This document shows positions 4,666-6,232 of a DNA stretch of 59,471 nt, one piece after another. The notes under the pieces were generated by a model, which saw only the letters and a list, made by a program, of their open reading frames with translations, searched no databases and was not told where the DNA came from. Source of the DNA: an uncultured Heliomicrobium sp. (lineage in GTDB: Bacteria > Acidobacteriota > Blastocatellia > RBC074). The stretch is from positions 1-59,471 of the forward strand of contig CAZXZU010000002.1 in assembly GCA_964645355.1 (NCBI GenBank), read 5' to 3'. Made by a program: the position numbers and the translations under genes. Numbering within the stretch: position 1 is the stretch's first letter; the number at the start of each line of letters is the position of its first letter.

Positions 4666-5712
4666 TTATCGGCTGCGGCTGGCCAGAACTCTGGCGGCAT
4701 TGTCAGGATCAGCCAGAACATCCACGGCTGAAAACAGGCGATGGCATTTGGCATTGGCAGTCAAATCATTCAGCCATTGCCATTGCTGAGCTGTGTGGTC
4801 GCGCCAAAGCTGAAAGAACATGCTTTGTTCGGCTAAGCGCAGCAAGGCTTCGCTGAGTGGGAGTGGCTCAAGGCGGCTGTGCGGTTCGTTGACGATTTGC
4901 GGCAGGACGATGTGGTCAATTTTTTGGAATCTGGTTTCAGCCAGTTCTCGCGTGTTGAAAAACTCCAGGCCGCCGACGCAGGTTCGATCCAGGTATTGAT
5001 GATGTTTCGCAGCTTCGTTCAACTTCGGCCAACGGTTGAACAGTTCGTCGCCAATGTGGAAATACTTTTTGAGCGGCGTCAGAAAGGCTGACGATTCGTC
5101 TTTGCCGACCAGCAACGAATCGTCTGAAACAGGTCGCCAGCCAGCCAGCCCCAACGCAGTTGTCAGCGTGGTCTTCCCTGCCCTTTGCGCTCCGCAAACC
5201 AGCCACAATTCGCCGGTCGGCGAAACGATTGCCGCCGCGTGCAGATGGTAAAGCCGCCGCCAGCGCAGCATCAGCAGCAAAGCAAACAGCGCGTATGTGT
5301 TCGCCAGAATGTGCGGAAACTCCATCGCTTCGGGCGTGACCAGGCCAATGGCTTTTCCGGCTTCGACATCAACGCGAAAAGCGGCGACTCCCAGATGAAA
5401 GTAAAATCTCTCCGTCTCCCCGTATCCCTGTCTCCCCGTCTCCGATTCCTGCCATAAGCTGACAACTCCGGTTTGCGAAACCAACTCAGCCGTTGATGGA
5501 ATCAGAACTTCGCGCGTCGGCAATTGATCGCGCATCTTCAATTCGACTTGAAGCGCGGGTTCGTGTTTCGCCGAGCCGGGCGATTGATCGTTTGGAGTTA
5601 AGCGAATCGGAGAGTAGTAGCTGAAGTAATCAGCGAAGAGGCGGATGAGGCGCGGCGAGCGAGCCGAGATCGAAATCTGATTGCCGCAAATCGCCAGCGT
5701 GATAGCAGGCAT
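4666..5712 (-). CDS. HPr kinase C-terminal-domain-like (HprK-related) putative kinase
   Basis: LHAAAIVSPTGELWLVCGAQRAGKTTLTTAL: the LHA... motif followed by a P-loop, typical of HprK-like proteins. Sits next to a PqqD gene. Confidence 0.7.
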   Translation of the reverse strand: MPAITLAICGNQISISARSPRLIRLFADYFSYYSPIRLTPNDQSPGSAKHEPALQVELKMRDQLPTREVLIPSTAELVSQTGVVSLWQESETGRQGYGETERFYFHLGVAAFRVDVEAGKAIGLVTPEAMEFPHILANTYALFALLLMLRWRRLYHLHAAAIVSPTGELWLVCGAQRAGKTTLTTALGLAGWRPVSDDSLLVGKDESSAFLTPLKKYFHIGDELFNRWPKLNEAAKHHQYLDRTCVGGLEFFNTRELAETRFQKIDHIVLPQIVNEPHSRLEPLPLSEALLRLAEQSMFFQLWRDHTAQQWQWLNDLTANAKCHRLFSAVDVLADPDNAARVLASRSR

Positions 5713-5756
5713 ACTGAGTTAGATCACGAGTTGCGGATGTGGAAGGCGGTTAGATT

Positions 5757-5784
5757 CCGCAATCCACAATCCGCAATCCGCAAT
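5757..5784. repeat. heptanucleotide tandem repeat CCGCAAT x4 (one unit CCACAAT) in the PqqD/HprK intergenic spacer
   Basis: Read directly at 5757-5784. An inverted partner gttgcggatgtgg at 5729-5741 could pair with 5764-5777. Confidence 0.85.
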
Positions 5785-5788
5785 GGTA

Positions 5789-6232
5789 TTAGCCGCCGAT
5801 TGCGTTCGTCGCAATTGTCGAAGAGCCGGAGAGCGTGACTTGCGTCAACGAGTTCGACAGTGTCAATTGCGGCGGTTCGTAAGTGGGCAATTCGCCGTTT
5901 GTCGCGGCCAACGCACGGTTTGAAACCGTCACGCCGAAATCCGAATGGAAGATCAGCCCGTTGCTGTTCAACTCCGCCAGAAACTCGCGCGTGTCCAACT
6001 CCGCCAGGTCGTCGTTGATGTTGAACGAAGACGCCAGCGCCGCAGTCAGGCTTTCAACCGTATTGGCTGAGCCTGAACGCAATTGTTTCCACAGATAAAC
6101 CGCTGCCGCATTGAGGGTGTAATAATGAAGGTTCTCAAGATCGAGAATGATGCCTTCTCTGTTGTCGAGCAGTTCGGTAAACGATGCCTGCTCTTTGGTG
6201 ACTATTTTCGGGGTACTGGTCTGCATCTGCAT
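5789..6232 (-). CDS. PqqD-family (RiPP recognition element-like) protein with a 50-aa Ser/Thr/Asn-rich C-terminal tail
   Basis: GIILDLENLHYYTLNAAAVYLWKQL...TVESLTAALASSFNI...LDTREFLAELNSNGLIF fits the PqqD fold signature. The tail is SDFGVTVSNRALAATNGELPTYEPPQLTLSNSLTQVTLSGSSTIATNAIGG. Confidence 0.7.
   Translation of the reverse strand: MQMQTSTPKIVTKEQASFTELLDNREGIILDLENLHYYTLNAAAVYLWKQLRSGSANTVESLTAALASSFNINDDLAELDTREFLAELNSNGLIFHSDFGVTVSNRALAATNGELPTYEPPQLTLSNSLTQVTLSGSSTIATNAIGG

Follow-up and report, generated by a model that had tools for sequence, protein, structure and literature searches.

Organization of the Locus

The 59,471-nucleotide stretch of DNA analyzed here (positions 1 to 59,471 of contig CAZXZU010000002.1, deposited under the name of an uncultured Heliomicrobium sp. 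and placed by its GTDB lineage in the Blastocatellia, Acidobacteriota), hereafter the window, carries on its minus strand two adjacent genes that form the subject of this work. The first (5789-6232) encodes a 147-amino-acid protein of the PqqD family (PF05402), in which a recognition element for peptides made on ribosomes and modified after translation (RiPPs) is followed, in a single open reading frame (ORF), by a linker, a leader-like segment and a core-like segment. The second (4666-5712) encodes a 348-amino-acid P-loop protein related to HprK, with the fold of phosphoenolpyruvate (PEP) carboxykinases and the Walker A motif GAQRAGKTT. The features described below suggest that the RiPP recognition element (RRE) and its own peptide substrate are fused in the first protein, which comes from soil Acidobacteria, and that the adjacent kinase probably phosphorylates the tail of this fusion.

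The intergenic gaps on both sides of the fusion gene are short, with 55 nt (6233-6287) upstream and 76 nt (5713-5788) before the kinase gene. The original prediction had described these two genes as adjoining and separated by a 76-nt spacer with a heptamer repeat and a potential hairpin, and the coordinates, the tandem repeat search (TRF) and the folding calculations agree with it. Likewise, Pfam scans of all ORFs of at least 150 amino acids in the window bear out its statement that lasso-peptide enzymes are missing, since neither an Asn-synthase-like cyclase nor a Transglut_core3 protease (B2, PF13471) nor an ABC transporter was detected. A six-frame search of positions 1-14000 for [YW]xxPx[LVI] did not reveal any precursor-like ORF lying apart from the pair in its vicinity, in line with the earlier statement that none fits in the two gaps, and its sole in-context match was the tail of the fusion protein. 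A leader peptidase of the SpI-like (S24/S26) kind, an MsbA-like exporter and an NTP-transferase were not found in the window or in the conserved cassette described below. The window contains no pqq genes, and the RRE protein gave no match to TIGR03859 (PqqD) at E <=0.1. Searches for sigma-70 promoters and intrinsic terminators in 3900-12300 returned nothing above shuffled expectation.

The Recognition Domain

The RRE, a winged-helix PqqD domain, spans residues ~9-96 of the fusion protein (5945-6208, minus strand), with PF05402 on residues 26-94 (E 5.5e-14). Its best NCBIfam matches are lasso_PqqD_Strm and lasso_PqqD_Bac, both below cutoff. When a profile of the family was compared with all PDB sequences, only four entries were matched, all of them RREs from lasso peptide systems or from those of linear polyphosphorylated peptides (LPPs). 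The best of these solved structures in sequence is LppB bound to the LppA leader (9x8z_B, E 1.1e-7), followed by TbiB1, 9x90_B (PbaB1) and TfuB1. In the AlphaFold2 (AF2) model of the fusion protein, the RRE reaches predicted local distance difference test (pLDDT) values of 80-90 and superposes best on leader-bound TbiB1 and TfuB1, with target-normalised TM-scores of 0.83-0.88 and root-mean-square deviations of 1.3-1.9 angstroms. Moreover, the residues through which LppB contacts its leader (N33, Y60, D70, F74, M78 and L83) correspond, in our mapping through a hidden Markov model (HMM) alignment, to N41, F70, D80, F84, L88 and L93. Of these mapped pocket residues, two (N41 and L93) never vary in the family and three (F70, F84 and L88) are kept in at least 90% of its members, D80 being the exception. 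Judged by these sequence and fold matches, the domain is an RRE of the lasso/LPP kind that retains its peptide pocket.

The Tail of the Fusion Protein

The RRE is followed by a tail formed by residues 97-147, whose sequence the original prediction quoted exactly, although it counted 50 residues where there are 51; the YxxPxL leader motif in this tail was absent from its observations. Its proposed check, whether orthologous proteins keep the tail, has a clear outcome. Among 5.8 billion proteins searched, 215 homologues were identified. Almost all of these are 144-150 amino acids long, with the tail kept in about 200 of that length, and the named ones belong to the Blastocatellia or Acidobacteriota. 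In alignments of 29 and 91 members, the tail divides into a variable stretch and a nearly invariant C-terminal segment, the latter composed of a leader-like and a core-like part. Residues 97-114 (~18 residues; 5891-5944, minus strand) form a variable linker in which no column is conserved. Residues 115-134 (5831-5890, minus strand), with the pattern LPxY118xxP121xL123...T133-L134, form a leader-like segment defined by conservation and by the lasso register. Finally, residues 135-147 (SGSSTIATNAIGG; 5792-5830, minus strand) form a core-like segment in which Ser137, or possibly Ser135, is the predicted phospho-acceptor.

The nearly invariant C-terminal segment of the family reads LPxYEPPQLKLSNSLTQVTLSGSSTIATAAI. 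In the 91-member alignment, Y118, P121, L129 and S137 are invariant (91/91), while L134 (90/91), L123 (89/91) and S135 (88/91) are nearly so, and the column of T133 is occupied by Thr in 62 members, Val in 21 and Ala in 6. Nei-Gojobori counts over 33 genes, in which pS is near saturation and the ratios are approximate, gave pN/pS values of 0.28 for the RRE domain, 0.71 for the linker, 0.17 for the leader-like segment and 0.23 for the core-like segment. The C-terminal 33 residues are under strong purifying selection, and since their ratios are lower, this part of the tail is more constrained than the folded RRE. Going by its conservation, the tail is not a loose linker.

The leader motif of lasso peptides, YxxPxL, is placed at positions -17 to -12, and position -2 is occupied by Thr, for which Ile/Val stands in Bradymonadales, Acidobacteriaceae and Sphingomonadales (PMC10368454). 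When Y118 is set at -17, P121 falls at -14, L123 at -12, T133 at -2, L134 at -1, S135 at +1 and S137 at +3. By the measure of these aligned positions, the tail resembles a lasso/LPP-type leader carried in cis and in the published register. Core positions 7-9, in turn, read A-T-[A/N] throughout the family and hold no Asp or Glu, so that no lasso macrolactam ring is possible. Core Ser3 is the residue that BsfK phosphorylates in its lasso precursor and that LppK polyphosphorylates (PMC13381572). The distance from Tyr to Ser is 18 residues in the LPP motif and 19 in both BsfA and the window family.

In the AF2 model, residues 111-130 have pLDDT values of ~70-73 and DSSP assigns a strand at 123-126 (leader -12 to -9), which resembles the pairing seen in published RRE-leader complexes, where the RRE sheet is extended by the residues just past the motif. 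The model shows residues 130-147 as disordered, and the core-like segment falls below a pLDDT of 50. The spacing between the Leu of helix alpha-3 and the motif Tyr is 22-29 residues in the window family and 19-28 across all related tail types, and it is thus held although the sequence of the linker is not conserved, which fits a geometric constraint. Docking of the tail on its own RRE is supported but not proven by the DSSP and pLDDT values of the model.

The HprK-Like Kinase

The protein encoded next to the fusion has no Pfam assignment and gave no match to TIGR00679 and PF07475, the models of bona fide HPr kinase/phosphorylase. Its best NCBIfam match is TIGR04352 (HprK_rel_A, E 3.5e-10), at 39.5 bits against a curated cutoff of 200, while the RRE protein scores 19.7 bits against a cutoff of 35 with the companion PqqD model TIGR04353. 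Membership of the pair in the HPr-rel-A system, one of the two options that the original prediction had left, fails at these cutoffs. Compared with PDB sequences, the kinase profile gave generic P-loop matches alone (E >=0.16). The AF2 model is a confident two-domain structure (pLDDT 93.4, predicted TM-score 0.90), and every one of its 50 best fold matches in the PDB is a PEP carboxykinase (E down to 2.6e-8). The PEP carboxykinase fold superfamily also includes the catalytic domain of HprK/P.

The putative catalytic core, G174-x4-G179-K180-T181...D197-D198, is encoded at 5119-5193 on the minus strand, with H156/H158 upstream at 5239-5247. All 92 kinase homologues share H158, G174, G179, K180, D197 and D198, and at least 90% of them keep H156 and T181. 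In BsfK, mutation of G163, G168, K169, S170, D186 or D187 lowers activity, and the spacing G-x4-GK[T/S]-x15-DD is identical in both proteins. Therefore, with invariant catalytic residues in a BsfK-like spacing, the kinase is very likely active.

The Spacer Hairpin

The spacer between the two genes contains a long hairpin of TTGCGGA heptamers (5723-5784, minus strand), of which TRF counts 4.1 copies. Its folding energy of -37 kcal/mol (z = -5.0) was equalled by none of 200 shuffled sequences. A strong hairpin occurs at the same position in 23 of the 25 related loci where it could be measured, with stems that are unrelated in sequence (TTGCGGA, GGGGAGT and other arms), which indicates that the structure is conserved and not the sequence. 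The hairpin in the spacer is not followed by a U-tract and, thus, does not qualify as a canonical terminator; it may instead act in mRNA stability or in the differential expression of the two genes.

The heptamer array was also considered as a genome-wide repetitive extragenic palindromic (REP) element and rejected as such, since only one other site exists in the 59 kb. This second array (33841-33868, plus strand) lies inside the coding region of a PSCyt/PSD1 protein (33172-36384, minus strand). The other palindrome families of the window are unrelated to the array. A REP-like family has three intergenic copies (37201-37272, 39346-39434 and 51663-51730), in which arms of 25-35 nt that include GGTAGCGACC pair with 89-96% complementarity around loops of 18-19 nt.

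A Conserved Four-Gene Cassette

The genomic context was scanned in one genome per species, which yielded 41 loci, 40 of them in metagenome-assembled genomes of Blastocatellia or Acidobacteriota, some mislabelled as Heliomicrobium. The fusion and kinase genes adjoin in all 40 related Blastocatellia loci. Upstream of the pair in the window lies a gene for a PD40 (TolB-like) beta-propeller with a signal peptide (6288-7232, minus strand; PD40 E 2.3e-23), which directly precedes the fusion gene in 39 loci. It is preceded by a gene for a membrane-anchored protein of 1542 amino acids with IPT/TIG and NHL repeats (7321-11949, minus strand; NHL E 2.3e-19, TIG E 2.9e-4). The hydrophobic N-terminal segments of these NHL and PD40 proteins are read here as signal or anchor sequences. 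The NHL protein occurs in every locus with enough flank, at 44-91% identity, and where the contig is long enough the order of the block is NHL-repeat protein (~1540 amino acids), PD40 propeller (~310 amino acids), RRE-tail protein and kinase. This block is kept down to 37% kinase identity.

No lasso cyclase was found within 8 kb in the 40 related loci, nor did the related loci show any recurring cyclase- or peptidase-like family or any conserved extra gene. The genes downstream of the block vary between loci. A gene of 593-663 amino acids convergent to the kinase gene in 11 loci was examined as a potential lasso cyclase and discarded, as it has no Asn-synthase match. An extracytoplasmic function (ECF) sigma factor and a Ser/Thr kinase encoded downstream were not retained as parts of the system, since they stand behind the block in only two loci (L009 and L014), and neither was an upstream HtrA gene, which is conserved solely among closer relatives.

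Related Recognition Elements with YxxPxL Tails

The window family is not isolated among RREs. When 1.84 billion representatives were searched exhaustively with HMMER, 4257 PqqD-type matches were obtained, 12 of which, the window family among them, reached E <=1e-30. The best 149 of the 4257 include at least 47 single-module proteins (113-179 amino acids) with a [YFW]xxPx[LVIMA] tail, comprising 4 of the window type, 16 of type A, 11 of type B, 4 of type C and 12 outside these named types, and a further 13 of the same 149 are longer or multi-module proteins. The related tails align with that of the window on YxxPxLx5Lxx[LV], with the Pro invariant.

The tail types differ in what follows the leader-like part and in their genomic surroundings. 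Type A (16 clusters; L043 10001-13786, L049 1271-5423, Methylomirabilis) has tails ending ...LILSGE, which score 16.9 bits with NF033521 (lasso_leader_L3), below the cutoff of 19. It is accompanied by an overlapping Peptidase_S24-like gene, an HprK-like gene, a family 4 glycosyltransferase (GT4) and NTP_transf_5, a combination that equals the LPP gene set. In type B (11 clusters; L047 1708-2824), the tail runs on as ...DPIHDVDxxGWP and the neighbouring overlapping gene encodes a family 2 glycosyltransferase (GT2). Type C (4 clusters; L045 and L051, around 10001-10444) carries a variable Ser/Gly/Cys stretch ending HYWYPN, next to many radical S-adenosylmethionine (SAM)/SPASM genes, a Transglut_core3 protease, an ABC transporter, NTP_transf_5 and ScmC/HprK-like genes. 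The contexts of these tail families thus range from a kinase only, through a signal-peptidase-like protease with kinase and glycosyltransferases, to many radical SAM enzymes or a GT2.

Six of the longer proteins (P0259-P0262, P0267 and P0325) contain two or three tandem RRE modules. Two of them, P0267 and P0325 (781 and 789 amino acids), combine three RRE modules with a C-terminal HprK-like domain, which in P0267 matches positions 147-335 of the window kinase profile (E 2.9e-9). An unfused relative was found in L042 (7714-11379, uncultured bacterium, CAYSSX010000011.1), where a 48-amino-acid ORF (PYQKPAL...GTMGG) lies upstream of a gene for an untailed lasso-type PqqD protein, followed by genes for a GT2-TPR protein, a sulfotransferase-like protein and an HprK-like protein. 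No cyclase was seen in this locus, which looks like an LPP-like cluster.

Proposed Mechanism and Alternative Explanations

The reading that best integrates these observations, and which is held to be moderately probable, is that the 147-amino-acid protein is a fused RRE-leader-core substrate on which the adjacent kinase would phosphorylate Ser137 or Ser135. The original prediction had offered a fused RRE-substrate as one of its two options, and this option gains support from the conservation of the tail and the selection acting on it, the leader motif, the invariant kinase residues and the 40 loci that lack cyclase and protease. As for the findings that it had named as unfavourable to this idea, the tail proved to be conserved, the P-loop of the kinase is intact, and no cyclase/protease set adjoins the pair in these 40 loci. 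Further points in favour are the fusions of RRE modules to an HprK-like domain in P0267 and P0325, the HprK-like genes beside tailed RREs in L043, L049, L045 and L051, and the unfused arrangement in L042.

The fusion protein would act as a self-contained RiPP-type substrate composed of a lasso/LPP RRE, a flexible linker of ~24 residues, the leader-like LPxYxxPxL and a Ser/Thr-rich acceptor, L-S135-G-S137-S-T. In a first step, the recognition sequence would dock in cis into the cleft of the RRE as an additional beta-strand, as suggested by the motif, the conserved pocket residues, the constraint on linker length and the AF2 model. The RRE-leader complex would then present the disordered C-terminal segment to the HprK-like kinase, which may use ATP to phosphorylate, or perhaps polyphosphorylate, Ser137 (alternatively Ser135), by analogy with BsfK and LppK, two kinases that need an RRE or are accelerated by one and that act on core Ser3. 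The conserved hairpin probably sets a high ratio of substrate to kinase. Neither a leader peptidase nor an exporter, a cyclase or a nucleotidyltransferase is encoded in the cassette, and the product may therefore stay in the cytoplasm as an intact phosphoprotein, or it may be processed by unlinked enzymes.

Several considerations weigh against this proposal. Both the phosphorylation and the choice of acceptor residue are drawn by analogy with other systems, and the suggested cis docking derives from the DSSP and pLDDT values of a model. Ala substitution of Y, P and L in BsfA did not abolish phosphorylation and, thus, the kinase step does not have to be driven by the motif. The two precedents place the acceptor one residue apart, with Ser at Tyr +18 in LPPs and at Tyr +19 in the Bsf system, and the tail of the window protein matches none of the NCBIfam lasso leader models, NF033521 included. 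The type-A relatives end in ...LSGE and have almost no core, which fits a pseudo-leader better than a substrate. Moreover, the absence of a peptidase and an exporter together with the high conservation of the core is unlike typical secreted RiPPs, and the kinase, to which no Pfam family is assigned, scores well short of the cutoffs curated for HprK-related proteins.

The strongest competing explanation, although an unlikely one, takes the tail as an autoinhibitory pseudo-leader that occupies the RRE cleft until it is displaced or phosphorylated, so that the true substrate would be encoded elsewhere and the fusion would be a regulated adaptor. The type-A tails, which stop after the leader-like part (...LILSGE) with essentially no core, can be understood in this way, as can the lack of a peptidase and an exporter in the window cassette. 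In addition, a leader in cis could merely stabilise the RRE, since LppB is insoluble without its leader. However, no motif-bearing candidate for a substrate in trans exists within 14 kb, and the segment after the leader, with its invariant Ser137, is as constrained as the leader. Furthermore, type-C tails carry long and variable Cys/Ser/Gly cores in radical-SAM clusters, as real precursors do.

It is less probable still, and rather doubtful, that the two proteins are no kinase-substrate couple at all. The HprK-like protein would then be an NTPase or phosphorylase acting elsewhere, for instance on a lipid or sugar connected with the envelope proteins of the NHL and PD40 kinds, and the tail would either stay unmodified or be modified by unlinked enzymes. 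In favour of this reading, no Pfam family is assigned to the kinase, the PEP carboxykinases that it matches in fold act on small molecules, and its conserved neighbours are secreted propeller proteins with no RiPP precedent. Nevertheless, the motif and its spacing are exactly those of lasso-precursor kinases, RRE modules are naturally fused to a homologous kinase domain, and HprK-like genes recur beside tailed RREs in unrelated clusters. As for a decayed phospho-lasso cluster, from which cyclase, B2 and exporter would have been lost, in which loss of a stop codon would have fused the precursor to B1, and whose remaining pair would itself be on its way out, the resemblance of RRE, leader register and kinase to Bsf- and paeninodin-type lasso systems makes it conceivable, but it is highly improbable given that more than 40 genomes retain the fusion and the kinase, at identities as low as 52% and 37%, under strong purifying selection with invariant catalytic residues, that most homologues carry neither frameshifts nor dead kinases, that the ring-forming Asp/Glu is missing from the core in every member, that the order is B1 and then leader instead of leader and then B1, and that independent tail types share the RRE-tail architecture.

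Comparison with Known Systems

The fusion protein and its putative kinase find their closest parallel in the LPPs, which are made by the lpp clusters of Bacillota and are reported as restricted to this phylum (Popov et al., Nat Commun 2026, PMC13381572). Both systems lack a cyclase and share a lasso-type RRE, an HprK-like kinase, a leader with the YxxP motif and a Ser located ~18-19 residues past the Tyr. However, the LPP precursor is encoded by a separate gene, whereas in the window the RRE continues at its C-terminus into a fused leader and core, and only YxxPx[LV] is shared with the LPP leader, YxxPxVLxHQxIxFETxxS. The window core of 13 residues is highly conserved, unlike the long and variable LPP cores, and the host belongs to the Acidobacteriota (Blastocatellia), with an NHL protein and a PD40 propeller as conserved partners. 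The cassette also differs from the lpp clusters in having no SpI-like leader peptidase, MsbA exporter or NTP-transferase, all of which occur in the type-A loci L043 and L049. Therefore, without a separate precursor and these three components, the window system does not belong to the LPP class as defined.

The phospho-lasso systems of the Bsf and paeninodin type, with the kinases BsfK, PadeK and ThcoK, share with the window YxxPxL at -17 to -12, Thr or Val at -2 and a Ser as third core residue, and their kinases show the same H...G...GK[S/T]...DD residues; in the Bsf system the RRE speeds phosphorylation. In contrast to them, the window has no lasso cyclase, B2 protease, ring-forming Asp/Glu or exporter, and its putative substrate is covalently joined to B1. 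Since cyclase, B2 and ring acid are missing, it is not a member of the lasso class either. By analogy with both pathways, the window system may nonetheless work in the same manner, with a YxxP leader bound by an RRE and an HprK-like kinase acting on a Ser just past that leader.

A PqqD-family protein paired with an HprK-like P-loop protein is also found in the HPr-rel-A (TIGR04352 and TIGR04353) and SynChlorMet (ScmC/ScmD) systems, two systems known from comparative genomics, whose models are among the best NCBIfam matches of the pair, but these families are not described as having a leader tail in cis. In the borosins, of which OphMA is an example, the precursor unites the core peptide with the enzyme that modifies it, a catalytic methyltransferase. 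Borosins and the window protein thus both carry a substrate peptide at the C-terminus of a component of their own maturation, although in the window this component is a non-catalytic recognition domain and the leader is retained as well. No description of a natural RRE-leader fusion was found in the searchable literature, a search in which most subscription journals were not covered, nor did this literature yield anything relevant on HprK-related kinase A or on the tail motifs of the window family and of types A, B and C.

Other Features of the Window

Several features outside the cassette deserve mention in their own right. A 163-amino-acid ORF (423-914, minus strand) consists of 5.5 tandem 75-nt repeats identified by TRF, each encoding ~25 residues of the form LKVK[TS]NVKAGEGxTGxNHNQTVxRG, and belongs to no Pfam or NCBIfam family; a 70%-identical copy is present in L009 (14678-15121), downstream of the ECF sigma factor and Ser/Thr kinase genes. 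Four genes on the minus strand at 15592-20888 may form a small redox or maturation operon, and encode a radical SAM protein (19905-20888), a 535-amino-acid AhpC/TSA fusion (18301-19908) whose gene overlaps the radical SAM stop, a redoxin (17036-17638) and an unannotated protein of 562 amino acids (15592-17280). The large subunit of ribonucleotide reductase (21095-24721, minus strand) is split by an intein with a LAGLIDADG homing-endonuclease domain (Intein_splicing and LAGLIDADG_3), and an IS200-like Y1 transposase is encoded at 30889-31356 on the minus strand.

Implications for RiPP Biology

A tentative generalization, held with slightly less than even confidence, is that RREs with a leader and core in cis constitute a widespread and undescribed class of self-recognising RiPP precursors or scaffolds with at least four tail families. 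Within it, the Blastocatellia branch would represent the minimal version with a kinase only, perhaps recruited as a phospho-switch inside the cell that is connected with two secreted propeller proteins and does not yield a released peptide. The finding would also extend the phospho-peptide chemistry of the LPP and Bsf systems beyond the Bacillota and into the Acidobacteriota, provided that the predicted phosphorylation takes place.

Genome mining for RiPPs seeks a short and separate precursor gene beside the RRE. If leader and core sit on the RRE protein instead, the annotation of such a cluster shows a "PqqD family protein" but no substrate, and the cluster is missed. A survey of RREs reported, without explanation, that 21% of the proteins with PF05402 only are longer than a discrete RRE (PMC12710340), and the fused architecture may account for part of these long proteins. 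Moreover, the substrate and its putative kinase would make a simple two-protein system in which the presentation of a peptide by an RRE to an HprK-like kinase can be approached, and an RRE that naturally carries its leader in cis offers a ready-made design for leader-independent engineering. Thus, the Blastocatellia cassette suggests that peptide-modification systems can hide their substrate inside what appears to be a "chaperone" gene.

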